Below, one piece after another: positions 1,878-22,975 of a stretch of DNA of 64,000 bases. A model generated the notes under the pieces. It made no database searches. It was not told where the DNA came from and was given only the letters and a program-made list of their open reading frames with translations. The stretch comes from a virus: the IMG/VR virus record IMGVR_UViG_3300032132_000754, positions 72,117 to 136,116 of that record. The stretch is one strand, 5' to 3'. How positions within the stretch are numbered: the first letter of the stretch is position 1; each line of letters starts with the position of its first letter. A program made the translations under genes and the position numbers.

Positions 1878-1878
1878 T

Positions 1879-2993: not shown

Positions 2994-2995
2994 AA

Positions 2996-4081: not shown

Positions 4082-4102
4082 GAGTCCTCTATGAGAATAT
4101 GA

Positions 4103-4175
4103 AGCGGACACCGGGAGTCGAACCCGGACCGTCAGATTGGAAATCTGTCATGCTGCCGTTAAACACCATGTCCGC
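4103..4175 (-). tRNA. tRNA-Gly (TCC)
   Basis: Reverse complement is GCGGACA-TG-GTGT TTAACGGC AGCAT...CAGA TT TCC AA TCTG...CCGGG TTCGACT CCCGG TGTCCGC T. It has acceptor stem, T-arm and U73 discriminator; CCA is not encoded. Confidence 0.92.
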
Positions 4176-4187
4176 AGGTTGGGGAAA

Positions 4188-4340
4188 TTATTCCCCAGTT
4201 TCAGTAGTAACCGGAGCTACTTCCTGTGTCTTAACAGTATCTTTTACTAACGTAACAACGTCAGCACCAAAAAAATAAGTCAGAGCGCTCAAAGCGAGAG
4301 CAACACCGACACCAACTAAAGTCTTCTTATCAAGTTTCAT
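4188..4340 (-). CDS. 50-aa single-pass membrane protein (not in ORF track)
   Basis: MKLDKKTLVGVGVALALSALTYFFGADVVTLVKDTVKTQEVAPVTTETGE*, with GGAGAG upstream. It fills the gap between the two tRNAs. Confidence 0.65.
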   Translation of the reverse strand: MKLDKKTLVGVGVALALSALTYFFGADVVTLVKDTVKTQEVAPVTTETGE

Positions 4341-4357
4341 AATAACTTAACTCTCCA

Positions 4358-4429
4358 AGCGGCACATGGGATTCGAACCCATAACCTTCACGTTGGCAAC
4401 GTGACGTTCTGCCATTGAACTAGTGCCGC
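4358..4429 (-). tRNA. tRNA-Gly (GCC)
   Basis: Reverse complement is GCGGCAC TA GTTC AATGGCA GAAC G TCACG TT GCC AA CGTGA AGGTT ATGGG TTCGAAT CCCAT GTGCCGC T. Clean cloverleaf; CCA is not encoded. Confidence 0.95.
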
Positions 4430-4514
4430 GCAAGTGTTTAAAGTCTCTCCAGACCTTTGGGGGCCGACAAATGCCGACGCCATCCACCAGTGTAAGTTTG
4501 AAACCATTCCAGGG

Positions 4515-4748
4515 TTATAGCATCCTTCTATTTTTCATCTTAGGAATCTTACCATGCATAAGCTCGGCATAACAATCCCTACAATGTTGCGCAAATTTCG
4601 GCTTCCCCGAATGATGTACGACTTTAGCAGGATCACCACATGAAATACACTTTGGGCGACCCGAACACTCATCTGGATCAAGATAGGCGTACTGGTCGGA
4701 TTCTTCATTTTTTGAAGTTTCCGGTTGAACAGGAGACGTCATAAACAT
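4515..4748 (-). CDS. hypothetical zinc-ribbon protein
   Basis: 77 aa with CISC...CRDC. Confidence 0.55.
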   Translation of the reverse strand: MFMTSPVQPETSKNEESDQYAYLDPDECSGRPKCISCGDPAKVVHHSGKPKFAQHCRDCYAELMHGKIPKMKNRRML

Positions 4749-4779
4749 CCTTCAGTATTTGAGAATTAGAGGACACCAT

Positions 4780-6441
4780 ATGTACGATCTGAACTTGCTT
4801 TCTGAACATTTTCCCTTCGAGGAATTCCGTCCTGGCCAACGAGAATGTATAGAGTCCATTCTTGAAGCCTTCGACAAAGGGAAAAGATTCGTGTTATTAG
4901 AAGCTCCTACCGGATCAGGAAAATCAGCAATCGGACTGACCGTTGCTAAGTACTTCGAAGACGCATATTATCTAACTATCCAAAAAATTCTGCAAGACCA
5001 ACTTGCCAACGAATTTGAAAACGATAAAATTAAATGCCTCAAAGGCAGAAACGCCTACCGTTGCAATTACTGGGAGACATATATGGAAAAATATATGTCT
5101 GATCCGGCTAAAATGAAACAAATGGAGGTCGACGCCAAAGATCCCGAAATCCACAAAACGATGGCCAACCCCCATTTGCCAGCCAGTGCTGGCGTATGCA
5201 TGGTAAAAGAACGTCGTAGCAAATCGGATCTCTGTTTTCCAAAAGGCAGTAGCGACTTAAAATCCAGCTTGTGCGACTATTGGAAAGCCGTTGGTCATTC
5301 AATGTCGTCGCACACCTGCATCATGAATTTCCACTCGTTCCTATATCAAACATCGGTGACTGATAGGTTCAAACCACGGAAAATGCTGATCATAGACGAA
5401 GCTCATAACTCAGAGCCTCAACTAATGGACTTCGTATCATTGACTCTAACAGACAGAGCCTTGCGAAAAGAAGGGGTTAAAATCCCAGAATTCGACACAG
5501 CAGAAGAATATGCCAAGTACTTTACTGATATTCGCCTGCCAGAAAAAATCGAAGACATGGTCCGATTGGCTCACGTCACAAGAGATTTTAAGAAAGCAGA
5601 AGAATGGAAGAAAGTTCTATTGCAATACAAAATTTTCCTCAATAACTTCGAATCCGGAGATTGGATCCCAAACTGGGAAGATAGAGGGTATTACCGGCGA
5701 GTGACTCTAAAGCCAATTTATGTAAACAAGCACGCTCAGTCCTATTTGTTCGGCTTCGGAGAAAAAGTTCTTATGATGAGCGCAACAGTGCTACAACCGA
5801 AAATTATCTATGATTCATTGGGAATCGACCCTAAAGAAGCTTTTGCTTATAGAATGAAAAACAGATTCCCAGCTGAAAACCGTCCGATCTATTTCCAACC
5901 AGCGGGTAGCATGGCATATCGGAATAAACGAGAGACGATGCCAAAACTTCTCGACTCGATCGAGTCGATCTGTGCTAACTATTCTGATAAAAAAGGAATT
6001 ATTCATACGCACAACTTCGAAATTTCGAAGTACATCATTCAAAACGGCAGTAAAGCACTAAAAAAGAGAATCTTCTTCCAAGAAAATTATTTCTCCAAGG
6101 AAGAAATGCTTAAAAAACACGCTAAATCAGAAGATGGTATCATTGTCGCACCAGCTATGCACGAAGGGCTTGATTTAAAAGATGATCTTTCCAGATTTCA
6201 GATCATCTGCAAAGTCCCATATCCATCGTTCCAAGACAACGAACAATTAAAAATTAGAATGCAGTTATCGCAAGATTATTATAATTGGTTGACTGCCCTA
6301 AAGATTGTACAATCATATGGCCGAAGCATTAGAAGTACAGAAGACTGGGCAGATACTTATATCTTAGACGAAGATTTTAGTCGTTTTAAGAGAAACTGCA
6401 TGAAACTTCTGCCAAAATGGTTCTTAGAAGTTATCCAGTAA
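4780..6441 (+). CDS. DinG/XPD(Rad3)-family SF2 helicase
   Basis: Q motif FRPGQ, Walker A EAPTGSGKS, LKGRNAY-C, DEAH, MSAT, EGLDL..D..RFQIICKVPYP, QSYGRSIRS.EDW. Four Cys lie in the Fe-S region. ATG 4780 follows AGAGGA. Confidence 0.92.
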   Translation: MYDLNLLSEHFPFEEFRPGQRECIESILEAFDKGKRFVLLEAPTGSGKSAIGLTVAKYFEDAYYLTIQKILQDQLANEFENDKIKCLKGRNAYRCNYWETYMEKYMSDPAKMKQMEVDAKDPEIHKTMANPHLPASAGVCMVKERRSKSDLCFPKGSSDLKSSLCDYWKAVGHSMSSHTCIMNFHSFLYQTSVTDRFKPRKMLIIDEAHNSEPQLMDFVSLTLTDRALRKEGVKIPEFDTAEEYAKYFTDIRLPEKIEDMVRLAHVTRDFKKAEEWKKVLLQYKIFLNNFESGDWIPNWEDRGYYRRVTLKPIYVNKHAQSYLFGFGEKVLMMSATVLQPKIIYDSLGIDPKEAFAYRMKNRFPAENRPIYFQPAGSMAYRNKRETMPKLLDSIESICANYSDKKGIIHTHNFEISKYIIQNGSKALKKRIFFQENYFSKEEMLKKHAKSEDGIIVAPAMHEGLDLKDDLSRFQIICKVPYPSFQDNEQLKIRMQLSQDYYNWLTALKIVQSYGRSIRSTEDWADTYILDEDFSRFKRNCMKLLPKWFLEVIQ

Positions 6442-6442
6442 T

Positions 6443-9400
6443 TTAATATGCAACACCCAGCGGTGCAGTGATATCAAATCCGTTGCCGAATTCCATAGTA
6501 AACGTACAAGTTCCAGTACCCACAACGCAGTTTGTAATGTCGACAGTGTGTGCTCCAGGGCCGATTGGTGTACCATCGCCCTGTCTTGTAATCATTAAGC
6601 CAACTGGAATGTTGAATCTAAGTCCAACCTCAGTACCATCAGAAGCCGTCCATGTAATGCCAGTTTCAGAAGCTAATGAGAATGCCGATCCATCGCCACC
6701 ACCAAATTCGAAGTTCATAACTGCATCATCTGGAATAGTGAAATCTGTGGTAAATGTGAACCGGAAAGATCCAACTGCTGGAGTATCTCCGGCAACTGCC
6801 GATACGGTGAATGTACCCTGAACGAAAGTAACTGATGCGTTGGCGGTTGGGGAAAACGTTCCGTTAGTAAAACCGTTGACAGTCTTAACGCCAGGAGTCT
6901 GCGAAACCATACCCAAAACAACTTGGCCTGAAGCGTTGGTGTTTTGAATACCAGACGGTGTGAACGTATTGTTTAGACCAGTCGAGAATGTATCGACCAG
7001 CATGTCCGGAGTTGGGTTGCCATTCGCATCGACCAAAGTAATAGTGACGGTCTTAGAATCGGTTTCATCTGTAATGACAGTCCCAGCGGGCGCGGCGACT
7101 GAAGAACCAGCATCGACAGGGGCACCAGCATGGAAATCGGCCATTGATACGTCTGTAACAGCACCAAACCCGCTAGTTACATTGGCCGAAAAAGTTCTTG
7201 TGACGGCGGCTCCACCTGGGGCAGAACCGGTCTGAGTTGTTGAGATAGTGAACGTTGCTTCCCCGGCAGCATTTGTTACTGCTGGTGCAGAAACAGTATC
7301 TGCGCCTACTGAAGAAGATAATGATACCGTTTCGCCAGCTACCGGATTACCATGAGTATCTCCGACAACAACAGTAACACTATGAGTCTGGACACCATCG
7401 GCTACAACGGCGACCATAACTCCGGAAGAAATATCTGGTTTAGCACCTGCACCACCAGCTTCCCAAGTAGCCATATCAGTAGAATCAACAGCAATCAACA
7501 TCTCGGGCAATCCAGCGCCATCAGGCGTGCCAAGATCAGAAATGATACCAGATGCTGTCGCTACCTTAGTACCATGACCACAACCTCCCGGAAGCGGATC
7601 TAGAACATTAGTACCATCTAAAAGATCTGTAGTACCATGCCAGTGATCAAAAGCACAAGCGTCTGGAGGAGAAATGCTCATAAATGGATTTCTACCTAAA
7701 TCAAATTCGCCATAATTGAATGGGGCGTAATTCCCGCCAATCTGAATAACCGGAACCAAAATGATACTTCCACCCGTGCTTGGAATTGCGGAGGTCACAG
7801 AAGTACCGCCATCAACAGCTACATCCGGCAACGAAGTCGGGCTAAAGGTATCGGATGTTGCACCACCAGAGACACTAGCCTCAATAGTAGGTTGGTTACT
7901 AACCAGATTGTCTAAAGTTAAGTTATTGGTAGCAATACTGGATCCGTTAGTAACGGAAGTTGCACTATCCAAAACAGCCACGCCGCCAGTTACAGCCCAA
8001 TCTACTGTTTCTCCAGAACCCACAGGGTTACCAAACTGGTCTGTAACAAAAACACCCATGGCTGATCCAAGAGCACCACCAACAACTGCTGATTGGCCAG
8101 TTCCACTACTAGTCGCGACATTATCCGGAACATCCGGTAGGGGAACTAGCGAGGTAAATTCGTAAGTACTAACGCCACCACTTACACTAGCCTCGACATC
8201 CGGCGCGTTACTAACCAAGTTATCTAAAGTTAAGTTATTTTCCGCGATTCCAAAAATGTCTGTGACCGATGTAGCACCGTCTAGAACAGCCGCACCATTC
8301 GTGACAGCCCAATCAACAGTATGCCCAGATCCAACAGCATTCATAAATTGGTCTCGAATAAACACTCTCATATCAGAGAAGAGAGCACCACCAACGGTAC
8401 CACCATTGCTATCTCCAGTTAGCAGCGCGACATTGACTGGAACATCTGGCGTTCCAGTAGCTGGGAAACCGACTGAGCCAGCAACTGGGAAGCCGCTAAC
8501 GGTAGCCTGTAAGAAGTTAGACCCTGTCACTGTACCCAATTGCCAATCAGCAATCGAGGCAATACCAAAACCATTAGTGAGGGAAGAAGCTGTTACACTA
8601 CCACCGCCCATGGTAACATTCCAAAGAACTGTAGCGCCAACAACGGGCAATAGCCCAGCATCAACAACAAGAACTTCTAACGCGATACCAGGAATTTGGT
8701 TAACCACCTGCATCTGACCACTGCCAGCAACAAGGCTGATATTATCAGGCGTTCCAGTCATGGGAGTTGCGGTCGCCGTAAAGCCAACATCTGGTAGCGC
8801 CCCGAAAGACGCTTCAGCAGTTCCAGGACCAACACCAGCACCCATAGTCCAAGTAGCAGAAGCTTCGCCCATCGAGTTTGTCAATGACGATGGCGTAATA
8901 CTACCAGCCCCACCACTTACTGCCCAATTAACAGATTCTCCAACATTATAGTTCCCAAAAGTATCCATCAATCGAACTACTAACGGGGATCCGAGGGCAA
9001 CAGAAACCTGTGCGGACTGCCCATCACCGCTGACCAAAACCATAGAAGTCGGAACGTCCGGATCTCCAGTGGCTGTGAAACCAACGGATCCAGATAGAGG
9101 GAAACCACTTACAGTAGCTTCCAAAGTGTTAGAACCAGAAGCAGTACCTAACTGCCAATCTGCAATCGAAGCGATTCCAAAACCATTGGTTAGGGAAGAA
9201 GCTGTAACGCTACCGCCACCGCCAGTTACGCCCCAAAGGACCGTAGCACCAACGACAGGGTTCAACGCACCATCGACTACAAGAACTTCTAACGCAGTGC
9301 CAGGAATCTGATTAACGGTCTGAGACTGCCCATCACCGCTAATGAGACTAATATCATCGGGAACACCGATCGCCGGGGTAGCAGTCGATGTGGCTTGAAT

Positions 9401-12400
9401 AGTAGGCACTCCAGAAACCACGATAGCTAATTGTTGAACCCCAACTGCCAAACCAGTAGTCCAAATTGTTTGAGCAAACCCGGAAGAGTTCGTGACGGCC
9501 ATAACAGGCGCTGCAGAACCAAAGTCTGGGATGAAGGTAACGTATTCTCCTTCTACTGGGTTGCCATATTGATCTGTGACCAAAACGACGATCGGAGATG
9601 GCAGCGGGTTCCCAGCGACACCAGATTGGCCGTTACCACCGGCAACACCACTTGTAGATGCAGGACCAGCCTCTGAGGTCGCCCCCGTTGAAATAGATGG
9701 ATTAGATCCGCCTACAACTTGGGCGTCGATTGACTGCCCACCGATGCCAGTTGGCAAAGTCCAGATGACAGAAATTTGTCCATTAACATCTGTGATGCCC
9801 ATGACTGGCGTTACTGTGCCTGATGACGGCACAAAAGTGACGGAAACTCCAGAAGCCGGAACTCCTTGACCATCTGTGACAAAATAAATGATAGCGTCAA
9901 GATCTTCACCAGCAACACCAGTTTGTCCACCACCACTAATGATAGAGATAAATTCTGGGAGACCGGCAAAACTTGGTGGATCCACGAGCTGAATTGGTGT
10001 ACATTCGTCAACAAATTCGCTGCCCATATAAATCATGGTCATGCAACCATAGCCAGCAGCGATGCCGCCTTCAGCAATAACCTGATTTACATCTTCTCCA
10101 AATTTCAATTCAGTAAGAAGAACTCCACCAGCAACACCACCACCTATCATGTTTTCAGCGAAAACACTATTGGCATTTTCACCAAAAGCACTAGCATTAA
10201 GTTCAGAAATGATATTGACAGGAAACAATTGACTTGGGACTGGATCGCCTAAGAACAAGTTTGTAGAATCTTGGTCGTCAATAATCACTAATCCAGGAGT
10301 TTCTGGGTCAGCAATGGAAGTTCCTGGACCGCCGACTACAGTTGTACCCGGATCTTCCGGGTCCAAGCGATTACTACGAGCAGAAACAGTTAATCTATAT
10401 CCACGGCAGTAATCAACACCAGTCATATTGACCATTGAAGTGATCTTAAACGTTGGAGTAGTTGTAATGCTAGGCGGAACTTCAGTAGGAGGAGTCATGC
10501 CTGGGATGTCTTCTGGGACTATCTCGATAGGAACTTCTTCAATTGGCGGAACGATCGACGGCGGCATCTCCTCTTCAGGAGGCACAGAAGAAATAGGAAT
10601 TCCTACATGAATAGTTGTACTAGACCATTCATCATCACGAACTTTAATTTTAGGAACCTGGCTACTAAAGCCTGTTGTAATATCATCGGCGAACGCATAA
10701 GTTCCTGGACCAAACGGACCATCTTCTTGCTCACCAGCAACCATAGTGTTGAACAACAATTGATTATTGCCAATTTCAACGCTTGTATTATTTTGTAGAG
10801 GATCGTGCACCAACGGAGCTTGAACATTTGTTGGAGATTTTAACAGAGATCCCGGCGCGGCATCGCCAAAACTGATAATAACTCGGCCATCGCCAACTGC
10901 ACTCAAAGTAACATTATCTAAGTTATACTTAATAGCATAACTTCCCTTACCCAAAGCACCATCACTAGTGATAGGATTGCCACCGACTACATCGACCATG
11001 GGAGCGAAAGACGGAGCTGGAGGAGGAAGAACAGCACATGGCGGATCTACCACATCTGGAATAGGCGGTTGAATAGGAACTACGACCTGTACAAAGTCAC
11101 TATCTCCTTCACCCCCACCGCCTTCGCCAACCGTTTCACCTGGTTGTGGAGCCGGTGGCTCACTCTCCAAAATAGTCAATTGAGAACCGACCTGAAAAGT
11201 GACAGATGTCGGAATTTCAGTAGTTTCAACAATATCAATGCTAGAGATCGTACCAGTACCATCCGGGTTTTCGATCATAAACGTCGCGCGGACCGCTTCA
11301 GCATCGACGAAAGCACATCCTTCACGCTCGAATATCGCACCACCACAAATATCAGGGTCGAAATCTAACGAAACCGTAATCTCACCATCGCCAGCTAATT
11401 TAACTTCTGCACAGAATTTGTTTTCACTCCCATCAACAACTGATTCTACAGTAGAAAGAGCCTCAGATTGAACTTCAGCATCGGGAATTCCACTTGACTC
11501 TTCTTGTGGCAGAGGTGGAACAAATTCACCTTCAGGGACATTATCATTAACTTCGATTCCCTCGCCAGCATCTACTTCGCCAGAATCATCAAACTGAGGG
11601 CCGATAGAAATGGCCGGATCAGAAAGATCAACTGCATTTTCAGGATCTGTTAAATCGATTGGAGGCATAAGGAAAATGCCATCTTTAACACCACTGAAGA
11701 TTAGATTGTCACATTCACATATACACGGAACGGGAAATGGGATTGGAGCCTTTGGAGACCCCGTAATGCCACATGGCTGATCGCCAACATTTGGGCAGAA
11801 AAAGAAATCTTCCTGGCAACACTGCTCAGGAGGTTTAGGAGTTGTAATGATAGAAAATAAATAATTCGGATCAGTCTGAGTGAACCAATTGAAACGGTAC
11901 TGAGACCATCTACGAGCCTGAACGCAATCCCCAGTAGGCGTCCATAACGGAATCTCTAATGGAGGAACGACATATTCTTTAGGTGCGAATTTGAAAAAAC
12001 CAATGTCTCTAGCATCAGAAATAGAAAATTTAGCGCCAACAAACTCATTAGTAATGATATTGTCGACAGTATCGCCATTAATAGCTGCTAAATTAGCGAC
12101 AGGAACTTCCTCAAATAAGGCATTCTCAAAGATTACAATGTCGTCATTAGCTGCTGCTTTTCGTAGTGATACCACAGCTTGAGTACTTCGGACAGATGGG
12201 TCCTCTAAAATCTGTTCAATTACTTCAACAAACCCTGAACCAGCAGAACCTTGATCACCCTTGGCCCCACGCTGACGTGCTTTATACCGCCAACCGGCCA
12301 GATCAGATCCTTCAATAGTTATAGAACCGAAGAAACGCTTGCTAGTAGACTCATAGTCAGATTCGAAAGTAGTGACTTCAACGTTCAAACTAGCGTCATT

Positions 12401-13285
12401 AATAATAATGGAAGGAGCAGACCCATCAATTGGATGCAGTATTTCTATTAGAATTGCGTCATCATCGTCTGGGCCAAAAAGTCTTAAGGAAATTGGCGTC
12501 TCGATTGGAGTCTCTACCGTAGCATCCCAAGAAAACGCACCGTCTGTAGTTCCAACAGGAAGTTGGAAAACTTCCGCCGCGCCTGGCATCCCCGAAGTAC
12601 CGGTATCACCGACTTCTCCAACAACACCTTTAGGGCCAACGCAGCAGTTACGAATTAACTTCTGGTAAAGACGACCCCTATCAATTTCAATTCGTAAACG
12701 AGTTTGGATTTTCTCCGGTTTGATGATCTTGCCGCGATCACCACCAAAAATGTTGATATTTTCTGATTTTACAATAAATGTTAATTGTGTATTAGAAACG
12801 ATCTCATAATTTCCATGAATCGTTTCTAGAAACAGCCCAGCCCATTCATCGATCTGAATCGGAACATTGATAGACATCGTGATTTTAGCAGTACCGTCAC
12901 CAAGATCAGCAATACGAGCAACAATAATAGATGCCCTGACTTCTTTAGGCTCAGAAGTCCGTTCCGGCGCGAATTTAATAAGATCGTCGCCGGAATGAAA
13001 CAAGTAATAATATGGGTCTTCTACGTCAGTAGCCAACTTGAACTTACTGAAATCGAAACCTTGTTCAATTAGCTCTTGTAGGAGAGCTAGCTTACGATAT
13101 AATTCTGGCGAAACCAAACCGTCTGTAGTAGGATCGACGATTTCTGGAACAGGTACAACACCAATGTTTACCCATTCTCTCTTTTCAGCGTTATATTCAT
13201 ATATGATACCACTGCTGGTGATAACTTGATCACCATCTTTGTTGCCAAATGAAGGCAGTTTTGGTTTGAATGTAGGGTCGGCCAT
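6443..13285 (-). CDS. giant (~2280 aa) putative tail/virion protein with tandem Big-1 (invasin-like Ig) domains
   Basis: About 8 repeats of SGxGQ...L.V.V.D..GNPV.G..V.F/W...T...G.A..W.LG in the C-terminal half. Short collagen stretches and Cys clusters lie in the N-terminal half. Confidence 0.8.
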   Translation of the reverse strand: MADPTFKPKLPSFGNKDGDQVITSSGIIYEYNAEKREWVNIGVVPVPEIVDPTTDGLVSPELYRKLALLQELIEQGFDFSKFKLATDVEDPYYYLFHSGDDLIKFAPERTSEPKEVRASIIVARIADLGDGTAKITMSINVPIQIDEWAGLFLETIHGNYEIVSNTQLTFIVKSENINIFGGDRGKIIKPEKIQTRLRIEIDRGRLYQKLIRNCCVGPKGVVGEVGDTGTSGMPGAAEVFQLPVGTTDGAFSWDATVETPIETPISLRLFGPDDDDAILIEILHPIDGSAPSIIINDASLNVEVTTFESDYESTSKRFFGSITIEGSDLAGWRYKARQRGAKGDQGSAGSGFVEVIEQILEDPSVRSTQAVVSLRKAAANDDIVIFENALFEEVPVANLAAINGDTVDNIITNEFVGAKFSISDARDIGFFKFAPKEYVVPPLEIPLWTPTGDCVQARRWSQYRFNWFTQTDPNYLFSIITTPKPPEQCCQEDFFFCPNVGDQPCGITGSPKAPIPFPVPCICECDNLIFSGVKDGIFLMPPIDLTDPENAVDLSDPAISIGPQFDDSGEVDAGEGIEVNDNVPEGEFVPPLPQEESSGIPDAEVQSEALSTVESVVDGSENKFCAEVKLAGDGEITVSLDFDPDICGGAIFEREGCAFVDAEAVRATFMIENPDGTGTISSIDIVETTEIPTSVTFQVGSQLTILESEPPAPQPGETVGEGGGGEGDSDFVQVVVPIQPPIPDVVDPPCAVLPPPAPSFAPMVDVVGGNPITSDGALGKGSYAIKYNLDNVTLSAVGDGRVIISFGDAAPGSLLKSPTNVQAPLVHDPLQNNTSVEIGNNQLLFNTMVAGEQEDGPFGPGTYAFADDITTGFSSQVPKIKVRDDEWSSTTIHVGIPISSVPPEEEMPPSIVPPIEEVPIEIVPEDIPGMTPPTEVPPSITTTPTFKITSMVNMTGVDYCRGYRLTVSARSNRLDPEDPGTTVVGGPGTSIADPETPGLVIIDDQDSTNLFLGDPVPSQLFPVNIISELNASAFGENANSVFAENMIGGGVAGGVLLTELKFGEDVNQVIAEGGIAAGYGCMTMIYMGSEFVDECTPIQLVDPPSFAGLPEFISIISGGGQTGVAGEDLDAIIYFVTDGQGVPASGVSVTFVPSSGTVTPVMGITDVNGQISVIWTLPTGIGGQSIDAQVVGGSNPSISTGATSEAGPASTSGVAGGNGQSGVAGNPLPSPIVVLVTDQYGNPVEGEYVTFIPDFGSAAPVMAVTNSSGFAQTIWTTGLAVGVQQLAIVVSGVPTIQATSTATPAIGVPDDISLISGDGQSQTVNQIPGTALEVLVVDGALNPVVGATVLWGVTGGGGSVTASSLTNGFGIASIADWQLGTASGSNTLEATVSGFPLSGSVGFTATGDPDVPTSMVLVSGDGQSAQVSVALGSPLVVRLMDTFGNYNVGESVNWAVSGGAGSITPSSLTNSMGEASATWTMGAGVGPGTAEASFGALPDVGFTATATPMTGTPDNISLVAGSGQMQVVNQIPGIALEVLVVDAGLLPVVGATVLWNVTMGGGSVTASSLTNGFGIASIADWQLGTVTGSNFLQATVSGFPVAGSVGFPATGTPDVPVNVALLTGDSNGGTVGGALFSDMRVFIRDQFMNAVGSGHTVDWAVTNGAAVLDGATSVTDIFGIAENNLTLDNLVSNAPDVEASVSGGVSTYEFTSLVPLPDVPDNVATSSGTGQSAVVGGALGSAMGVFVTDQFGNPVGSGETVDWAVTGGVAVLDSATSVTNGSSIATNNLTLDNLVSNQPTIEASVSGGATSDTFSPTSLPDVAVDGGTSVTSAIPSTGGSIILVPVIQIGGNYAPFNYGEFDLGRNPFMSISPPDACAFDHWHGTTDLLDGTNVLDPLPGGCGHGTKVATASGIISDLGTPDGAGLPEMLIAVDSTDMATWEAGGAGAKPDISSGVMVAVVADGVQTHSVTVVVGDTHGNPVAGETVSLSSSVGADTVSAPAVTNAAGEATFTISTTQTGSAPGGAAVTRTFSANVTSGFGAVTDVSMADFHAGAPVDAGSSVAAPAGTVITDETDSKTVTITLVDANGNPTPDMLVDTFSTGLNNTFTPSGIQNTNASGQVVLGMVSQTPGVKTVNGFTNGTFSPTANASVTFVQGTFTVSAVAGDTPAVGSFRFTFTTDFTIPDDAVMNFEFGGGDGSAFSLASETGITWTASDGTEVGLRFNIPVGLMITRQGDGTPIGPGAHTVDITNCVVGTGTCTFTMEFGNGFDITAPLGVAY
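7900..9320 (-). repeat. internally duplicated Ig-domain coding repeats
   Basis: ~8540-8705 vs ~9150-9315, and ~7900-8060 vs ~8200-8350, encode near-identical peptides with mostly synonymous differences. Confidence 0.8.
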
Positions 13286-13296
13286 CAACCTTATAT

Positions 13297-14358
13297 TTAC
13301 TTAAGGATATGTGCTGTGCCTTCACGTTGAGCAGAAGGGGTACGGCGTTCAACCCGCAACACATTATCCATACGCTTATTATGCAGATCTTCAATACTAC
13401 GAACTCCCATATCTTGAAAGGAGTATTGAAGAGCGCACTTAAGATAAAGCATTAAATCACCAACGTTGCCCGTAGGCTCTACAGTTGTGCTAACGCCCTG
13501 GGCCACTACTTGAGTTCCATATCGGCCATTGCCGCCGCTCGTTAGAACTTCTTTACTAGCCATTCCGCGATAAACTTTTCGATGATTTTCCCAACCAGGA
13601 GCCTCATTACAACCAGCCACCATACTGCCCATCATGACAGTACTAGCGCCAAGAAGTAAAGCTTTAGCGATATGACCAGAATTTTTAATGCCGCCATCAG
13701 CAATAACAGGGACCCCAGCCTCTCTGGCCACCCTAGCACAATGATGTACTGCAGTAGCTTGAGCACGACCAACGGCCATCATTTCCTGGGTAGTACAAAT
13801 GCTACCCGGACCCATTCCGACTCGAATTGCGTCAGCTCCGGCAGCGATTAAACCGCGTGTCTGATAACTAGTAACCACGTTACCAGCGATAACGTCAACG
13901 CCAGGGAAATTATCTTTGATATACTTAATGGTATTAAGCTGGAAGAGAGACCAACCATGAGCAGCATCGATAAGAACAACACGAGCCCCCGCATCAACCA
14001 CAAGCCCAATCCTATCACGATCATCCTCCCTAGTGCTAACAGCCGCTCCGACTAACAAACCACGACTTTTAGCCACAATAGAAACTTCTATAGCTTGCTC
14101 TTCAGCAGTCAAATTACTATGGATAATGCCAACACCACCAACTTCGCCCATACCAATACCCATACTAGCGTCGGTTACCGTATCCATAGGACTGCTAATG
14201 AAGGGAAGCTCGATCTCGATGTTTTTAGTTAGTTTGGTTTTGAAATGAACTTCTTCTCTAGGAAAATCGACAAAACCTGGAAGAACGATGAAATCGTCAT
14301 AGGTAAAACCAGGTGCTCCATTCTTAAAAAGTTCACTTATTGAGTTACCATCTTGCAT
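13297..14358 (-). CDS. guaB: IMP dehydrogenase (CBS-less, eukaryote-type signature)
   Basis: SSPMDTVT, AGNVVT, RVGMGPGSICTTQ (catalytic Cys), IADGGI, YRGMAS, VAQGVS. Start MQDG follows GGGAGG. Confidence 0.93.
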   Translation of the reverse strand: MQDGNSISELFKNGAPGFTYDDFIVLPGFVDFPREEVHFKTKLTKNIEIELPFISSPMDTVTDASMGIGMGEVGGVGIIHSNLTAEEQAIEVSIVAKSRGLLVGAAVSTREDDRDRIGLVVDAGARVVLIDAAHGWSLFQLNTIKYIKDNFPGVDVIAGNVVTSYQTRGLIAAGADAIRVGMGPGSICTTQEMMAVGRAQATAVHHCARVAREAGVPVIADGGIKNSGHIAKALLLGASTVMMGSMVAGCNEAPGWENHRKVYRGMASKEVLTSGGNGRYGTQVVAQGVSTTVEPTGNVGDLMLYLKCALQYSFQDMGVRSIEDLHNKRMDNVLRVERRTPSAQREGTAHILK

Positions 14359-14374
14359 ATCGCCCTCCCGCGCC

Positions 14375-14707
14375 CTAAATAGAAAAGCTAGTACCGCAAC
14401 CGCAAGTACCAGAACTGTTCGGGTTGTTAAATACCAAACGATGACCAAGATTCTCTTCTACTAAATCGACAGACATACCGTCTAAAAACATGAGAGATTT
14501 TTTATCAACAACTATTCTCACGCCTTCCGACAAGAAGACCTTATCATCCTTTTTAGGCAGTTCGAAAACGCGAGACGCATGTTCCATCTCTACCCCATAT
14601 TCGAACCCGGAACAACCACCACCAGTTACATTAAATCTCACCCCGCCGAGGGGGGAAAGTAGCTTGGCTTTAATGAAATTCGCTGCTGCTTCTGTAAGTG
14701 TTACCAT
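14375..14707 (-). CDS. iscA: A-type Fe-S cluster carrier (IscA/ErpA/HesB family)
   Basis: MVTLTEAAA, GGGCSGFEY, FNNPNSSGTCGCGTSF. Confidence 0.93.
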   Translation of the reverse strand: MVTLTEAAANFIKAKLLSPLGGVRFNVTGGGCSGFEYGVEMEHASRVFELPKKDDKVFLSEGVRIVVDKKSLMFLDGMSVDLVEENLGHRLVFNNPNSSGTCGCGTSFSI

Positions 14708-14712
14708 TTATG

Positions 14713-14744
14713 TTAGATACGGGGTGGGGAAAAGTCGTATCTAA
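14713..14744. promoter_or_regulatory. back-to-back GTATCTAA promoter-like motifs (divergent)
   Basis: GTTAGATACG-N14-CGTATCTAAC. The - copy is 13 nt before the iscA ATG; the + copy points into the 14750-15500 region. Confidence 0.6.
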
Positions 14745-14749
14745 CGTAT

Positions 14750-15500
14750 GTTGCGAGTGTCCAATATGCTCAGTGACATGAGAAATCCAAGTGGGATAGA
14801 GGCACCAGGTTCATTTTAAGGTTTTGGCCTGGCCAGTATACTGGTTTACCCAGTCATACCCAACCTCCATAGTGGAGGAAACTAAAGCAAAGAGCAATAG
14901 TTCATTTCTCGGTTTTATTACAACAAATCAACGGCTACGGCTGTTGGTGATCCCGACGTACTATGACAATTTTAAACTACAACAATAACATGAGCCAAAA
15001 AGCAATTAAAGCTAAAAATCAGCAAAAAGCAAAAGGTCCATATATCTATCAAAGTATCTGCGAATGTTATAAAAAGTCAAGAGTTAGCGCAAGCGTCAAT
15101 ATAAAATTGTTGGGATGTGTGATGAGAACAGAGATGGTGGGGGTCCAACACGGCAACGTGCTCTGGATAAGAACGTTACGAGCGTTCACGTCATTCTGCC
15201 TCCACTTGGTAGGACTGCCACATATAAAGGCAAGCCTAATGTGCGATAGTGATCAAGAATTCATAAACAGAAAAACGCTAGATGCTGTACGGTCTGAAAA
15301 GCCACTCGTCACTGCCCAAAAGGTAGTGGTGTCTAGTAGACCTGTGGATGGGATTCTTAACTCCATTAATTATAGAGGGAAGTCAGCTCGTGGTTTGGAC
15401 GCCATGGGGTTATTAACAGGTTCAGTACTTCGTTAATTCTGATTCTTCTTTTCTCTCTTATTTATTGGGGCGTCACTGGGGAAACCTTTGTATCCAAACA
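14750..15500 (+). ncRNA. candidate large structured RNA (unassigned family)
   Basis: Largest gap without a recognisable gene. It contains a cUACGg hairpin (14927-14948), GNRA hairpins (15149-15160, 15479-15486), further stems with G-U pairs valid on the + strand, and long-range helices. It lies directly downstream of a promoter-like motif. Confidence 0.4.
14963..15436 (+). CDS. doubtful 157-aa ORF overlapping the candidate structured RNA
   Basis: Open frame only; no recognisable motif or clear SD. Confidence 0.25.
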   Translation: MTILNYNNNMSQKAIKAKNQQKAKGPYIYQSICECYKKSRVSASVNIKLLGCVMRTEMVGVQHGNVLWIRTLRAFTSFCLHLVGLPHIKASLMCDSDQEFINRKTLDAVRSEKPLVTAQKVVVSSRPVDGILNSINYRGKSARGLDAMGLLTGSVLR

Positions 15501-15592
15501 ATAAACACAATTAATTATAATAACTTTCTCAATAAATACATAAATAACACTGAAAGGCATTTAGCCATTTCAAACGTATTACAGAGGTTGTT

Positions 15593-16972
15593 ATGGCAAG
15601 CGGATTATTCAACATCGTCAATGTTATTAATAATGGGGGATTGCCCTCAGCTTATACCCTAACGACATCATCCATAGCTGGGATCGCATTAAACGACCAC
15701 ATCGGAGCGCAGCTAGCAGGCGGAAGAGGATCAGTTTACAAGGTTAGTAGCATTATCGGGCCTACAACCATCATCGTAGAAGATCTCTTAACAGAAGGCA
15801 ACGACGGCAGCGCCGAGTTTGGCCCCCCAGCGCTCGGTCCCGCATCTTTTGAGACTCCGGAGCCTAACAAAGGTTTATCACAAATTCCGTTTGGGTCCCC
15901 AGGTTGGGACGCTGTAATTCGCAGAAATTACGCCGTGTTAGATGTCACTATTGGCACTACCGGCCCAGAAGGTCCGGCGGGCCCTGTAGGAGTTGGTAAC
16001 ACTGGCGGAACTGGAGTCGTTGGCCCTACTGGCAACTCTGGGACCACTGGACCTACTGGTGGCGGAATTACTGGTGGTACGGGCGGCACCGGAGGGACTG
16101 GAGGCACCGGAGGGACTGGAGCTGCTGGTACAAATGGGACGGATGGGACTACCGGACCAACGGGCGCTGGCGGAGATACTGGGCCGACAGGCGCTGGGCC
16201 TACAGGAGCTACTGGTCCCGCTGGCGCACCAACTGGCACGACAGGCCCAACTGGTGCAGATGGGACTACTGGACCAACAGGCGCAGATGGCATCACTGGC
16301 CCTACCGGAACTGTAGGTATCACCGGCCCGACAGGTGCAGATTCAACTGTCGTTGGTCCCACGGGCGCTGATGGCATCACTGGCCCTACCGGAGCAGATT
16401 CGACCGTTGTTGGTCCAACCGGAGCTACTGGAGCTGGTACTACAGGTCCTACTGGAGCAGATTCGACCGTTGTTGGCCCAACTGGACCAACTGGCGCACA
16501 AGGGACACAAGGCATCCAGGGAATTCAAGGCATCCAGGGAATCGTTGGTCCCACAGGATCAGGCGCTACATCTCTTAGCATCAGAATCATTACTGGCGAT
16601 ACTACATTGTTGTCTAGTGACGATGTCATTATTAATCATACTACGGCTGGTTTTAGTACAACTGTTACGCTTCCTAGGGCTAATACCATGCCGGTTAAGC
16701 AGTATTATTTTAAAAACGCGAATAACCAAATCAATCCTGCAACCACAACTCTATTGGGTCTGGTTGTTACAGCCGGTGATAGAATTGATACAACTAACCC
16801 ATTGTTGACAGCTTGTAGCTTAAGAACTGGAAGTGGTGGGGCTAATAACGGTACAGCAGGCGTCATTCTAATACCAGATGCTGCCAATAATAGATGGTTA
16901 ATCTTCGGCAATTACGATCCTAGGACCAACATCGGTACCGCTGGCGCACATGCTGGCGCTAACCTAAATTAA
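15593..16972 (+). CDS. collagen-like (G-P-T/G-A-T/G-I-Q) tail-fibre protein
   Basis: ~200 aa of interrupted G-X-Y repeats. The C-terminal TVTLP...YYFKN domain is typical of fibre proteins. AGAGG SD. Confidence 0.85.
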
Positions 16973-17008
16973 AACCGTACGTAGATATTACAAATCGAGG
17001 GTTTTAAC

Positions 17009-17383
17009 ATGAAAGTTACCACACGTCAAATTCTTAGCTCGGTCGAGCCCTTAAACAAGCTTATTAACGAAAAGCTTCCGGCTCGGGTTGCGTTTCGCGT
17101 AGCTCAAGTATCTCGTCAACTTGATAACCACCTTCAGGATTATAACAAGACGTTAGTTAAGTTGCAACAGGAGCATTGTTCTAAGGACCACGAAGGAAAT
17201 ATGGTCAAGGATGAACAAGGCATCATTAAATTTGATGATCGAGAAGCTTTCCAAAAGGAACACGAGGAGCTTCTCGAATGCAACGTAGAAGTTAATGGAA
17301 AGCCATTGAAGCTAGATCAGTTATCTTCTGTTAAGTTAGAACCTGTTATTTTCTATCATCTTGACTGGTTTGTACAGGAATAA
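17009..17383 (+). CDS. conserved phage hypothetical protein
   Basis: 124 aa, GAGG SD, GTAGATAT motif upstream. Confidence 0.7.
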   Translation: MKVTTRQILSSVEPLNKLINEKLPARVAFRVAQVSRQLDNHLQDYNKTLVKLQQEHCSKDHEGNMVKDEQGIIKFDDREAFQKEHEELLECNVEVNGKPLKLDQLSSVKLEPVIFYHLDWFVQE

Positions 17384-18046: not shown

Positions 18047-19597
18047 ATGTCTGAATCAGTAATTGAAACCGCAGTCAACATCACTGAGCGCGAACGGAAG
18101 GAAGCTAATGTATCCTTCCCCGGAGCTACAGAGTTTGTTCATCTACATAACCATACGCTTTTCAGCCCATTAGATGGGATTGCAACGCCGGACGAATATT
18201 TCAGTGCTTGCGCTCACCTTGGCAATCCAGCATTTAGTATTACAGACCACGGTAGCTTGGCTAACATTCCAGATGCTTATTGGGCTGGGAAAAAGCATGG
18301 AGTAAAATTCATTCCTGGATGTGAGATTTACTTCTCCCCAGCGTATCCAGAGCTTAAAAGATTGCAACAAGACCCAGCGTTCAAATTGGGCGCTCTAAGA
18401 CCGGATTATACAAAAACCGCTTTTACTGTTGAAGACCTCGATAGTGAGGAGAAGTACTCCGATTTCCGCCGCCAACGACACTTGTCCGTTTTAGCCATGA
18501 ACATGGTTGGTTATCGGAATCTGATCCAAATGACTACTGAAGCGTGGGCTGACGGATTCTATTATAAACCGAGAATTTGGTTTGAAAAAATCGAAAAGTA
18601 TCACGAAGGTCTAATTATTCTCTCCGGATGTCTAAATGGTCCGATTTCTCATGCTCTACGGCGGGCGGAGTTTTGGAAAAAAGTAGAAAACAAAGAAACT
18701 ACACAAATCACTCGGCATTTTAGAAAACAAAAGATGACGATCGATCTAAACATCACACCAGGTGAAGCCGCTATTAGGCGAAAGAAAAGCCAAAAAGAAG
18801 CTATAGACTGGGTTATTAAATTTCGTAATTTGATGGGTGACCGTTATTATTTAGAACTACAAATGCCTGGAGACGAGATTCCGTTCGGTAAGGAAGCCTT
18901 TAGACAGACAGCGCTAATTTCTAAAAAACTTAAAGTCCCGGCTGTAGTAACAAACGATTGCCACTACTTAGAAAGACCAGATTTTAAAGTCCAAAAATGC
19001 ATGATGGCAATTGACCAAGGTTTGTCGATTAATGACCCAAACTTATTTCATGTAAACTCGGACGAACAATTCTTCAAGAGCAGGGCTCAACTTAGAAAAA
19101 CTTATTTCGACGGTGGTTATAACAATTTTCAAGAACCACACTTATTTGAAGAAGCTTGTGATAACACTGTAGCTCTTGCGGAGCGTTGCTCTGGATTCAA
19201 GCCAGATCTCAACCCCAAATTGCCATCAGTCCCAGACGCCAATAACAAAATCCGCAAATTGGTTTATGACTCCCTTAAGAAGAGAGGGTTGTGGGACAAT
19301 CAAGATAAATTCGTTGTCGACGGTAAGTCAGTAACATATAAACAACAGGCTGATATTGAATTAGAACGTTATACCGAAAAAGGGTTCGCTTCTTATTTCT
19401 TAATCATTAGGGATTTGATTGCTCATTCTAAAAGTCAGGGATGGGATATTGGGCCTGGTCGAGGAAGCGCTGGAGGGTCTCTGGTGTGTTTCTTGCTTGA
19501 TATTCACTCGATCGACCCATTAGCGTGGGGTTTAAGTTCGGTAAGATTTATGGGCGACAGTCGCGGTGGACGATTACTAAATATCAAAATGGAGTAA
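18047..19597 (+). CDS. dnaE: DNA polymerase III alpha (DnaE), N-terminal part (PHP domain + first palm segment)
   Basis: FVHLHNHT..SPLDG, ITDHG, GCE, GFYYKPRI, LSGCLNG, TNDCHY, GFASYFLII.D, GPGRGSAGGSLVCFLL.I..IDPL..GL...RF. It ends before PDID. Confidence 0.92.
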   Translation: MSESVIETAVNITERERKEANVSFPGATEFVHLHNHTLFSPLDGIATPDEYFSACAHLGNPAFSITDHGSLANIPDAYWAGKKHGVKFIPGCEIYFSPAYPELKRLQQDPAFKLGALRPDYTKTAFTVEDLDSEEKYSDFRRQRHLSVLAMNMVGYRNLIQMTTEAWADGFYYKPRIWFEKIEKYHEGLIILSGCLNGPISHALRRAEFWKKVENKETTQITRHFRKQKMTIDLNITPGEAAIRRKKSQKEAIDWVIKFRNLMGDRYYLELQMPGDEIPFGKEAFRQTALISKKLKVPAVVTNDCHYLERPDFKVQKCMMAIDQGLSINDPNLFHVNSDEQFFKSRAQLRKTYFDGGYNNFQEPHLFEEACDNTVALAERCSGFKPDLNPKLPSVPDANNKIRKLVYDSLKKRGLWDNQDKFVVDGKSVTYKQQADIELERYTEKGFASYFLIIRDLIAHSKSQGWDIGPGRGSAGGSLVCFLLDIHSIDPLAWGLSSVRFMGDSRGGRLLNIKME

Positions 19598-20506: not shown

Positions 20507-22975
20507 ATGGCTGTTAAAACATGGGCTGACCTCGCCAGAAAAGCGATTATTAGCTGTGCACAGAAAAAACTGGGCACAGAATATAAAGATCGACTAAAGC
20601 GAGAAATAAAAGAAATCACCAAACAAGGTGCTAACAATTATTGGGTTAGGCTCTACAACACCGGCCAAAAATTTGAGCACAACAAAAATGGTTTAGTTTT
20701 CCCTTATCTATTAGACATGACACCAGTAGACCCGGTCGAATCGGAAATCGCTCACATTACGCGATTGGATCCAGAATTCCCGGACATCGATATTGACCTA
20801 CTGCCGATCTCTAGAGATCCTATTAAAGCGTTCGCTGAAAAGAAGTACGGCACCGAACACGTTTGTAACGTAGGGTTGTGGCTTACTTATAAGGCTAGAT
20901 TAGCCATCCAAGATTCAGCGACAGTTCTTGGACATAACCGACACGAAGCGATCGCAGCCCTTAAAGATCTCCCGGCAGAATTCGACGACATGTCGTTCAA
21001 TGATGCTTACGATGAGTTCGAATCATTTAAAAAGTATTCAGATGATTATCCAGAGGTAGTCCACTTAGCTTATCGAATGAAAGGGAAAATTAAATCTCAA
21101 GGGAAGCACGCTGGTGGGCTAATTATCTCATCAGTTCCAATTAGAGACTTCGTCCCATTAACATTCATTGGAGCCAAAGGCAACAAGCAATGGACTTCGG
21201 CATGGACCGAAGGGATGGCTGCGTCTCAGTTGTCTAAGTTCGGGCTGGTAAAATTCGACTTACTTGGCCTACTAAACTTGGCCTATATTTATGACGCCAA
21301 AAAACTAATTGAAAAATCTAAAGGGATTAAAATTGATTTCGACGAAATCAATCCCCTGAAAGACTTGGCTGGCTGGATGACTCATTCAGATGGAAAAGTC
21401 GAGAAAATTCTTCTAAACGATCCTAAAGCTCTAAAACGAGCTAACGATGTAAAATTGGAATCAATTTTCCAATTCGATACTGACCTGCAAAAGAGCATTC
21501 TAGAAAAGGGCGGCACAAAGTCGTTCATGGATCTAGTCATTTATAACAGTCTTGGGCGTCCTGGGCCTTTGCCAATGGTCGATGTCTACATTAGCAATCG
21601 AGATAAAGACAATTCTTGGAAAAAACGCTTACACCCTAAGATGTTTGATATCTTGGAAGAGACAAAAGGCGTACTGACGTTCCAAGAACAGCTTCTGCGA
21701 ATTTGGGTCGAAGTGTGTGGATTCACCATGCCTGAGGCCGAAGCCGCCCAGAAAGCTGTCAAGAAAAAGAGAATGGAGATTCTAGACGAAATCGGTCCCC
21801 GAGTCATCGAAGGTGCCACAATTCTATTAGGGAAAGACGTAGCAGAAGAATTGTGGAGTAACATGGTGTCTTTTGGTCGTTACTGTTTCAATAAGAGCCA
21901 CGCCGTCGGATACACCTTAATCGCTTATCGGTGCTTGTGGCTTAAGACCCACTTTCCCGCTGAATGGTGGGCAGCAGTATTATCTAAGTGTCCCAACCAC
22001 AAGACTTTACAGTTCATGGGAGCTGCCAGAGCCGAAGGTATCAAATTTGGCTCTATTAACGTCAACCATCCGACAGCAGAATTCTCGGTAGAGGATGATA
22101 GGGTTATTCCTGGAATTCTTAGTGTTAAAGGAATCGGGAAGAAATTTGGTAAAAAGCTTGTAGACGAAGCTAAAAATGGCAAATTCAACAACTTTGATGA
22201 ATTCGTGGAGCGTGTTGGCAAAGACAAGACTGCAATCGAAAGATTGATCAAATTAGGTGGTTTCGATTCTTTCTATACAAATCGCAAGGCTCTTTGGATG
22301 TGGTATTATTACAAATATTGCAGTGGGTCCGACGTCACTAAGACTAAACGCCTCATCAATTTCTGTTATACTTGGCCTTCGGATATGATCCACGACGAAC
22401 GACGTCGACAGGCTAAAGAATACATGCTGGCATATCCGAAACGCAAGAAGATACCCCAGAAAATTACAAAGTGGGAACCATCGGCGCGTATAGATATTCC
22501 ACGCCCATTTAATTCGGAAATGCAGCTCGCAAAAGAGCAAATAAGATTGGCTAATAGGCTCGATCTAGATATCGACAATGTAATTGCATTATTTCCGAAA
22601 GATTTCACGCTATCCGAAATTCTAGATTTCGAAAAAGAATATTTGGGTTACTATTGGCACTCCCCAGTCGACGTCTTTGAGCATGAAGACGGATGTAAAA
22701 TCGAGGATGCTAAGAAAACTGGTATTCTAGAGTGTGTAATTGAAGACGTACAAAAACGGAAAGGCACAAGAGGGGAGTATTTGATCCTCAGTGTCACCGA
22801 CGGAATTAATTATGCTCGCATCAACGTCTGGACCGACGAGATGAATTTCAATGATGAAGAAGTCTTTGAATCAGGTGTCGGAGCAAGAATGAACGTGCGT
22901 TGGCAAGAACGTTGGAGAAGTTTTAGTCTTAAAAGGCGGTCATTCATTGTGCCGCTAATGCTCAAGGAAGATTAA
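20507..22975 (+). CDS. dnaE: DNA polymerase III alpha (DnaE), C-terminal catalytic part
   Basis: FPDIDID, GKHAGGLII, KFDLLGL, IFQF, FQEQ, YCFNKSHAVGY, HhH SVKGIG, EKEYLGYY, C-terminal OB fold. Confidence 0.93.
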   Translation: MAVKTWADLARKAIISCAQKKLGTEYKDRLKREIKEITKQGANNYWVRLYNTGQKFEHNKNGLVFPYLLDMTPVDPVESEIAHITRLDPEFPDIDIDLLPISRDPIKAFAEKKYGTEHVCNVGLWLTYKARLAIQDSATVLGHNRHEAIAALKDLPAEFDDMSFNDAYDEFESFKKYSDDYPEVVHLAYRMKGKIKSQGKHAGGLIISSVPIRDFVPLTFIGAKGNKQWTSAWTEGMAASQLSKFGLVKFDLLGLLNLAYIYDAKKLIEKSKGIKIDFDEINPLKDLAGWMTHSDGKVEKILLNDPKALKRANDVKLESIFQFDTDLQKSILEKGGTKSFMDLVIYNSLGRPGPLPMVDVYISNRDKDNSWKKRLHPKMFDILEETKGVLTFQEQLLRIWVEVCGFTMPEAEAAQKAVKKKRMEILDEIGPRVIEGATILLGKDVAEELWSNMVSFGRYCFNKSHAVGYTLIAYRCLWLKTHFPAEWWAAVLSKCPNHKTLQFMGAARAEGIKFGSINVNHPTAEFSVEDDRVIPGILSVKGIGKKFGKKLVDEAKNGKFNNFDEFVERVGKDKTAIERLIKLGGFDSFYTNRKALWMWYYYKYCSGSDVTKTKRLINFCYTWPSDMIHDERRRQAKEYMLAYPKRKKIPQKITKWEPSARIDIPRPFNSEMQLAKEQIRLANRLDLDIDNVIALFPKDFTLSEILDFEKEYLGYYWHSPVDVFEHEDGCKIEDAKKTGILECVIEDVQKRKGTRGEYLILSVTDGINYARINVWTDEMNFNDEEVFESGVGARMNVRWQERWRSFSLKRRSFIVPLMLKED

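Follow-up and report, generated by a model that had tools for sequence, protein, structure and literature searches.

A candidate family of knotted RNAs in large phages

The 64-kb window analysed here, a stretch of 64,000 nucleotides from an uncultured large bacteriophage that may be of marine origin, contains a gene-poor stretch between an iscA-like gene and a collagen-like gene. The original prediction placed an undescribed large structured RNA there. Comparison with related phages bears this out: the stretch encodes a predicted RNA of about 739 nt, five homologues of 433–1139 nt are found in related T4-like phages (loci L002, L060, L254, L261 and L262), their core helices covary, and the stretch has no match in Rfam. 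Judged from the aligned sequences, the six members appear to constitute a genuine, uncatalogued family of knotted RNAs in T4-like large phages, and it is close to certain that a real RNA structure exists at this stretch. As to function, we favour a stand-alone knotted RNA of ~740 bases that would serve as a structural scaffold in trans and whose A-rich loop would load ribosomes; this mechanism, taken as a whole, could equally well prove right or wrong.

Conserved core

The core is predicted to be a double pseudoknot, because the loop of hairpin Pb and the linker that follows it lie inside the long-range helix Pa and their pairing partners lie beyond Pa (coordinates in Table 1). In five members helix Pa (14787-93 with 15203-09) is fully paired (35 of 35), and three of its seven columns show two-sided changes. 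After the purine bulge of Pa, a GAG/CTC pairing is invariant (15/15). The motif AAA.C.{6}.GA.AGAG is present in all six members, and the invariant bases cluster at unpaired or bulged positions next to Pa. Hairpin Pb is paired in 30 of 30 cells and has two-sided changes in four of five columns, a level reached by none of 500 shuffles. Clear helices of 5–7 bp are formed by Pc/Pe in L002, L060 and L254.

The pseudoknot between the Pb loop and the 3' tail comprises 7, 8, 7, 8, 5 and 10 Watson-Crick pairs across the six members and is built from four different sequence pairs: an AAGGTTT-type pair in three members, AGAGTCTA/TAGACTCT, GTCTC/GAGAC and TACACTGTCT/AGACAGTGTA. Against random 50-nt windows, the chance levels per member are 0.11, 0.031, 0.12, 0.009, 0.54 and 0.0003. 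These combine to 2.9e-5 by Fisher's method, a figure to be read with the levels not fully independent, as one sequence is common to three members. A GNRA tetraloop hairpin occurs in all six members (GCAA, GTAA, GCGA, GCGA, GCGA and GTAA), 37–62 nt 5' of the Pa 3' strand. Covariation between this loop and a receptor, judged by eye, was inconsistent. Near the 3' end of L002 (about 6550-6582), and in that member only, there is a match to the 11-nt tetraloop-receptor motif.

Neither the long-range helix 14787/15209 nor the loop-to-tail pseudoknot 14818/15488 was part of the original prediction, which had listed local hairpins and two long-range helices. Six of those hairpins are recovered where they were claimed with mean pair probabilities of 0.94–0.99 (the UACG loop at 14927-48, the GCAA loop at 15149-60, and the hairpins at 14864-78, 15310-28, 15171-87 and 15387-408), and the ATCCC long-range helix has a pair probability of 0.96. 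Three other proposed elements fail: the GAGAAAT/ATTTCTC helix (0.00), the ACAATTTTA helix in its claimed register (0.01) and the 2-bp hairpin GG-GAAA-CC (0.07), whose bases form instead the 3' strand of the conserved pseudoknot. The minimum free energy fold closes the 5' and 3' ends with a helix at 14770/15479, which was set aside because the homologues pair those 3' bases differently.

The fold energy of the window sequence relative to shuffles gives z -3.33 on the plus strand and +0.83 on the minus strand (20 shuffles per strand), and the sense-strand z-scores of four homologues, L261 being left out, are -3.70, -2.36, -5.95 and -3.35. Folding energy by itself is weak evidence, and the covariation in the homologues is decisive. 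Among the control windows, 35501-35840, which lies within a PD-(D/E)XK endonuclease gene, has a plus-strand z of -5.2 with 12 shuffles only.

Homologues and their genomic setting

A dnaE search led to three related records, one of which covers the locus (L002; the identical L004 was not counted). There, a gene-poor stretch at the corresponding place has short motifs in common with the window; this homologue was found by synteny, and a DNA search of the three related records failed to detect it. Pattern scans returned real members at 2 of 84 loci (15-nt pattern), 1 of 20 and 2 of 32, with L060 as the sole new member. A covariance model, R1, built on the 5' 87 nt was run over 40 dnaE-related records; seven matched, and L254, L261 and L262 were accepted. 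The features outside the model at these three loci are the promoter motif, the GNRA hairpin, the tail pairing and the proximity to dnaE, and the Pa partner is complete (10/10) in L254 and L261. Since R1 covered the 5' 87 nt alone, these members are independently checked by their Pa partner, their GNRA hairpin, the pairing of the tail, the promoter and the synteny. The members measure 739 nt in the window, 504 nt in L254, 1139 nt in L261 (the longest), 433 nt in L262, and 1044 and 965 nt in L002/L060.

A second model, R2, matched nine of 31 records, four of the matches being known members; extra matches in G002 (in the portal gene), G003, G016, G017, G031 and G032 were rejected. Twelve rejected loci were without the core motif or without a full Pa partner, and most lie inside long reading frames. 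A locus in L119 was rejected by eye. A relaxed Pa pattern gave 14 loci in 13 records, none with 7/7 partner pairs, and BLAST of the RNAs of the window, L060 and L002 against GenBank phages returned just chance pieces of 3–6%. No description of this RNA family was found in a literature search that left subscription journals outside its coverage, and the supplementary alignments of PMC5737381 could bear on it.

All six members lie at most 10 kb upstream of dnaE-N, three pointing toward it and three away, and the genes downstream of the RNA are not homologous across the members. These differences in downstream genes and in orientation fit a free-standing unit. One alternative is a very long cis-acting 5' leader, an antiterminator or translational gate, of the virion-type gene that follows; ribosomes traversing the open frame would then refold the leader or keep Rho away. 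Such a leader would agree with a following gene that begins about 45–105 nt past the tail in the window, L002, L060, L254 and L261 and is collagen-like or of a large Ig-repeat type in the window, L002 and L254, with alternative pairings of the 3' segment in the window and with no intrinsic terminator after the RNA. We consider it unlikely, as the downstream genes and the orientation toward dnaE change between members, the tail pseudoknot closes the unit ahead of the start of the next gene, and 433–1139 nt is an extreme size for a leader.

Promoter

The motif that the original prediction saw at the start of the stretch and mirrored for the iscA-like gene is there, as GTATCTAA at 14737 (+) and 14713 (-). 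The exact octamer has just four copies in the window, and the general motif is GTATNTAA. Genome-wide, 29 of 36 GTATNTAA sites lie outside open reading frame (ORF) cores, and the outside-core share of the genome is 17.5% (binomial 2.6e-16); in the related record G002, 33 of 42 sites fall there, where the expected share is 22.9%. An ATG follows exactly 5 nt after the motif at 10 of the 36 sites, for example at window 14713 (-), 18034 (+) and 20494 (+), and 5 or 6 nt after it at nine of 42 sites in G002. This spacing suggests a -10-type element of a phage promoter class that would give leaderless messages for replication genes. The fixed 5-nt spacing therefore puts the predicted +1 of the RNA near 14750, close to the 5' end that the original prediction had proposed together with a promoter of the RNA's own. 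A promoter motif lies upstream of every member, as GTATNTAA in five of six and as GTATATAG in the sixth. A scan for sigma-70 promoters gave a chance-level result.

Intergenic GTATNTAA sites precede the tRNA region, both dnaE parts and gp32. Not one occurs in genome positions 1-17,200 and 17,500-48,800, which hold the capsid, portal, terminase, baseplate and sheath genes. From this distribution the motif appears to mark a non-structural (early or middle) promoter class. At the other end of the RNA, five members have TATATTGA or a TATCCA(A/G)AC-like run after the pseudoknot strand (window 15489-15500), which could be the promoter of the next gene or part of the RNA end.

Variable domains and the open reading frame

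Insertions of very unequal size occur at three places, namely the 5' end, the interior of Pa and the part after Pa. The first expansion domain is missing from the compact members L254 and L262. L261 carries, in its second expansion domain, a near-exact internal duplication of ~50 nt (about 2026-2075 and 2120-2170) and purine-rich runs. In the window, L002 and L060 the insertion is A-rich (47% A in L002 and 57% in L060), and these three members hold 2, 2 and 4 copies of AAAGCAAA, which has none in the other three.

In the three A-rich members the sense strand also has frames that are free of stops over 161, at least 296 and 124 codons, and 0, 0 and 27 of 1000 shuffles contained a frame as long; local shuffling gave a similar outcome. 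The frames begin with an AUG of their own, span 87–300 codons and in two members continue through the core. They run in different phases across the core or end before it, and they have no mutual protein similarity. A search with the loop frame of L002 returned none but itself. The claim that the RNA is non-coding holds with a reservation: no protein is conserved across the members, yet in the window and both other A-rich members the sense frame exceeds chance length, and a close relative keeps the window's frame open. No conserved protein without covariation was found, although the frame lies beyond plain chance.

The only relative found of the 157-residue frame, P0133, is 73% identical over 148 residues, with start and end unchanged. 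All its insertions and deletions keep the frame, and its ISKK stretch equals the +1 frame of the window. The single-base changes in P0133 are less severe than random ones would be (P 0.008–0.066), and the probability that no stop would have arisen is 0.08–0.16. A selected 157-residue protein, with the RNA fold as an inherited remnant or a second layer, would account for this conservation and for the length of the frame. We regard this as very unlikely. The product has no Pfam family, one relative only and an Atlas structure model with a pLDDT of 0.32; the frames of the other members are dissimilar, in another phase or ended before the core, and three members have no long frame. The changes in P0133 also point to constraint on the RNA. 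They convert the implied GNRA loop from GCAA to GCGA, force a G-C to A-U change at pair 15257/15356 and leave pairing intact at 10 of 17 paired sites, where 15–38% would be expected (P under 0.001 to 0.07), in a count that takes pair 15257/15356 twice and omits one ambiguous change; 11 further changes fall at unpaired sites. Where both partners are visible, five of 10 are kept (P 0.01–0.32, non-significant at the higher null values). As the protein database reveals open-frame relatives only, P0133 overstates conservation by some amount.

Comparison with known RNA classes

Rfam 15 at the gathering score finds nothing over the window except two tRNAs. At E <=10 there are chance-level matches only for the window, L060 and L002, and at E <=3 none on L254 and L261 and one chance match in L262, outside the RNA. 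By these searches the RNA is to be placed in no Rfam family, including GOLLD, ROOL and OLE. It does possess the trait of the GOLLD/ROOL class, a large phage-borne RNA with a covarying, multi-stem, pseudoknotted structure, and by analogy it appears to resemble the large ornate phage RNAs described in PMC5737381 and PMC10383478 in size, context and architecture.

Like GOLLD, the RNA is large, phage-borne and pseudoknotted, has no assigned function, occurs in genomes with tRNA arrays and combines a conserved core with variable parts able to carry cargo; some GOLLD linkers are reported to carry a tRNA as cargo (PMC12990946). In the three records covered it lies outside the array, with the nearest tRNA about 10 kb away in G000, 9 kb in G002 and 5 kb in G005. 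Unlike GOLLD, whose core lies in the 3' domain, it divides its core between the 5' part and the extreme 3' tail, its insertion bears an A-rich open frame, and all six members lack an Rfam match. ROOL RNAs are given in PMC5737381 as averaging 581 nt, with six multistem junctions as well as three pseudoknots. The size range, the few invariant bases, the several junctions and pseudoknots, the phage context and the stand-alone position are alike, but the present RNA has another helix order, a 2.6-fold variation in length and no Rfam match, and has up to now turned up in a single clade of T4-like large phages.

In tmRNA, an mRNA-like, A-rich and weakly paired segment lies inside a long-range helix among pseudoknots, and in three of the six members a frame-bearing segment inside a long-range helix is reminiscent of this layout. 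The frames differ in spanning 87–300 codons with an AUG of their own and in continuing, in two members, through the core, and three members lack such a frame. As a candidate, tmRNA was rejected: ARAGORN recognized none of the six at thresholds 95, 90 and 80, the T-loop motif is absent from all six, and there is no tRNA-like domain or CCA end. SmpB was not found in three phage records, one of them complete, with the control positive in 10 of 14 genomes and a host SmpB possible, and neither tmRNA nor SmpB was found in G000, a half-complete record. Huge phages carrying tmRNA and SmpB are known (PMC7162821).

The original prediction had found no likeness to tmRNA, RNase P or group I and II introns, and feature tests failed for each of these, the motif tests being made with consensus motifs. 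By eye, and against the general layout, the order of helix, hairpin, helix reaching the 3' end and GNRA hairpin is reminiscent of RNase P RNA. The region V motif is absent from all six members, region I occurs in one, at the wrong (3') end, and there is no model match. The P7 pair of group I introns is found in one of six, with no Rfam match and a locus between intact genes. For canonical or circularly permuted group II introns, no member has a domain-5-like hairpin with the AGC triad, and GTGYG is scattered, with none in L254. Permuted introns are likewise large, stand-alone structured RNAs, and a GGGCG resembling their 5' splice-site motif is found near the 3' end in three of six members; there about 20 nt come after it in place of domain 1, and it takes part in a covarying helix (GATGC in L254). 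The features used, the domain 5 AGC triad with its AY bulge and the GUGYG or GGGCG that opens domain 1, are those given in PMC8637638.

A strongly diverged catalytic RNA, RNase P-like or derived from an intron, would process phage tRNA precursors or itself. Large ribozymes show double pseudoknots, GNRA loops and expansion segments, and the present RNA has a double pseudoknot, a fixed GNRA loop, expansion segments and invariant bases clustered in unpaired or bulged positions beside Pa; related records bear 42 and 34 tRNAs, and diverged RNase P RNAs may score below model thresholds according to PMC8172020. The lack of any Rfam ribozyme match at E <=10 (window, L002 and L060) or <=3 (L254, L261 and L262), the failed tests for RNase P, the group I P7 pair and the domain-5 motif, and a locus where no gene is interrupted make a catalytic RNA distinctly unlikely.

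Proposed mechanism

For the stand-alone scaffold RNA, we envisage the following course. The phage's own promoter would produce a discrete transcript, and its class, which covers the tRNA array, dnaE and gp32 and has none of its sites among those for capsid, portal and sheath, would place the RNA in the phase of replication and translation take-over. The tail pseudoknot would close the unit and protect its 3' end. Docking of the GNRA loop would take place on a helix of its own or another copy, as in the GOLLD and ROOL assemblies, and the RNA would fold into a compact, perhaps multimeric particle, by analogy with the multimeric assemblies seen for GOLLD and ROOL, GOLLD by cryo-electron microscopy (cryo-EM) (bioRxiv 10.1101/2024.12.08.627333); cargo can be borne by the variable linkers of both RNAs. 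In the three A-rich members, the AUG in or near the loop and the long stop-free frame would admit ribosomes and let them run through, so that selection would favour translatability rather than the peptide. We infer that such a ribosome-loading insert fits a phage invested in translation control.

Several observations weigh against this reading. The frames of L254, L261 and L262 are within chance (P 0.10, 0.65 and 0.38), and with three members lacking a frame beyond chance, ribosome loading cannot be the core function of the family; no evident Shine-Dalgarno-like run precedes the loop AUGs. Pa in L262 forms six of seven pairs and requires another register. Pb covariation in the three model-found members was partly selected by the search model, and Pe is ambiguous in the window, with several alternative 6-bp options, and weak in L261 and L262. 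Three 340-nt pieces of the stretch give z-scores of -1.1, +0.4 and -2.3, and five of 52 control strand-windows reach -2.3 or lower. A scan for a conserved self-complementary (palindromic) loop saw none, and oligomers are thus proposed by analogy only; no intrinsic terminator was found within 14650-15700, and the 3' end is a predicted one. The family is small, at six members in all, and patchy: three of 14 second-tier relatives have a detectable copy, and two records of 98–100% completeness have none.

A bolder form of the proposal is improbable in our estimation: the knotted core with its swappable A-rich, mRNA-like insert, whose long frame is open yet not conserved, would in effect be the message half of a tmRNA without the tRNA half, a new functional class, or else the minimal core of 430 nt would be a new ribozyme. 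As a message half, the RNA would capture or hold host ribosomes during infection, alongside the tRNA array and the RF-1-domain rescue factor.

Large structured RNAs without an assigned function are seldom published. What is new here is an uncatalogued family that has an unexplained open-frame feature and is GOLLD/ROOL-like in kind, with a proposed scaffold role. With lengths from 433 to 1139 nt around a small core that covaries, the family amounts to a natural series of deletions, and its minimal member suits probing, cryo-EM and activity tests. The open yet non-conserved frames of the A-rich members offer a sharp test of ribosome engagement by such RNAs.

Phage genome and locus

The window belongs to a 185-kb virus record with T4-like capsid, portal, terminase, sheath and baseplate genes. 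The phage carries the replication genes dnaE (in two pieces), RecA, DnaB and gp32, as well as 42 tRNAs, one RF-1-domain protein and one peptide deformylase. No close relative was found among GenBank phages. Among sequencing runs, one DNA run, a marine metagenome, matches the record letter for letter and may be its source sample, and no RNA run was listed. Once the 157-codon frame is disregarded, the gap of 849 nt that holds the RNA is the widest of the window, the runner-up being 404 nt; the original prediction had called it the sole long stretch in which no gene is recognisable. The link that it drew to iscA is incidental, as no iscA homologue adjoins the RNA at the five relatives' loci compared.

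The stretch sits between a helicase gene and dnaE, where the coding strand switches, and a local minimum of the cumulative GC skew is found no more than about 10 kb away. This position would suit a replication origin or a similar DNA element, which might have a primer RNA. We judge that reading extremely improbable: folding is strand-specific, GNRA loops and long-range covariation are features of single-stranded RNA, the region is not repeated elsewhere in the genome, and related near-complete phages have no detectable copy. The features of the predicted RNA and its neighbours are listed in Table 1.

Table 1. Positions of the predicted RNA, its parts and the adjoining genes in the window
Feature	Position	Strand	Remark
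iscA-like gene	14375-14707	minus	Neighbour only
Mirrored promoter motif GTATCTAA	14713..14720	minus	For the iscA-like gene
Promoter-like motif GTATCTAA	14737..14744	+	General form GTATNTAA; predicted +1 about 14750
Predicted RNA, about 739 nt	14750..15488	+	From predicted +1 to end of pseudoknot strand; both ends inferred
Conserved AAA and Pa 5' strand	14783..14804	+	CCAAGTG 14787-93, purine bulge GGATA, GAGGCA 14799-804
Hairpin Pb	14805..14832	+	Loop AAGGTTTT (14818-25) gives the long-range pseudoknot its 5' strand
Linker with small hairpin Pd (14841-53)	14833..14863	+	Pairs with bases just 5' of the 3' tail (helices Pc/Pe)
Variable expansion domain	14864..15135	+	Hairpin 14864-78, UACG hairpin 14927-48, stem enclosing the A-rich loop
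157-codon open frame	14963..15436	+	Overlaps the RNA; kept open, no protein conserved across the family
A-rich loop (48% A), weakly structured	14975..15101	+	AUG 14990, AAAGCAAA motif; likely ribosome entry site
GNRA (GCAA) tetraloop hairpin	15144..15167	+	Same place in all members
Hairpin between GNRA stem and Pa 3' strand	15171..15187	+	Pair probability 0.99; counterparts of differing sequence in homologue folds
Pa 3' strand (TGCCTCCACTTGG)	15197..15209	+	Pair probability 0.97 in the window
Second variable domain, several multi-stem arms	15210..15464	+	Length strongly member-dependent
3' tail	15465..15488	+	GGGGCG..ACTGG (Pe/Pc partners), then GAAACCTT (15481-88), pseudoknot 3' strand pairing with the Pb loop
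Collagen-like gene, downstream neighbour	15593..16972	+	Pfam Collagen; possible target if the RNA were a cis leader

The N-terminal domain of the collagen-like gene is found downstream of the RNA in L060 as well. This part (window 15593-15952, ~120 residues) is a domain without a Pfam family that has 130 representatives at E <=0.001 in proteins of 68–3153 residues. Single-protein locus searches with it and with IscA, and one protein search with the collagen N-terminus, gave no matches. Contigs L118 and L119 carry homologues of the large Ig-repeat protein of the phage, and L119 several further phage genes; both are in a bin titled Promethearchaeota and are probably binned phage contigs, and no RNA copy was found in either.

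The RF-1-domain protein is a stand-alone protein of 153 residues within the tRNA array (L276:8628-9086; about 64.8-65.3 kb in G000), and the peptide deformylase is encoded elsewhere. DNA polymerase III alpha is split over two genes, at window 18047-19597 (PHP and the start of the polymerase domain) and 20507-22975 (the rest). Unrelated ORFs separate the two parts, and the same split is present in L001, L002, L003, G005 and second-tier relatives.

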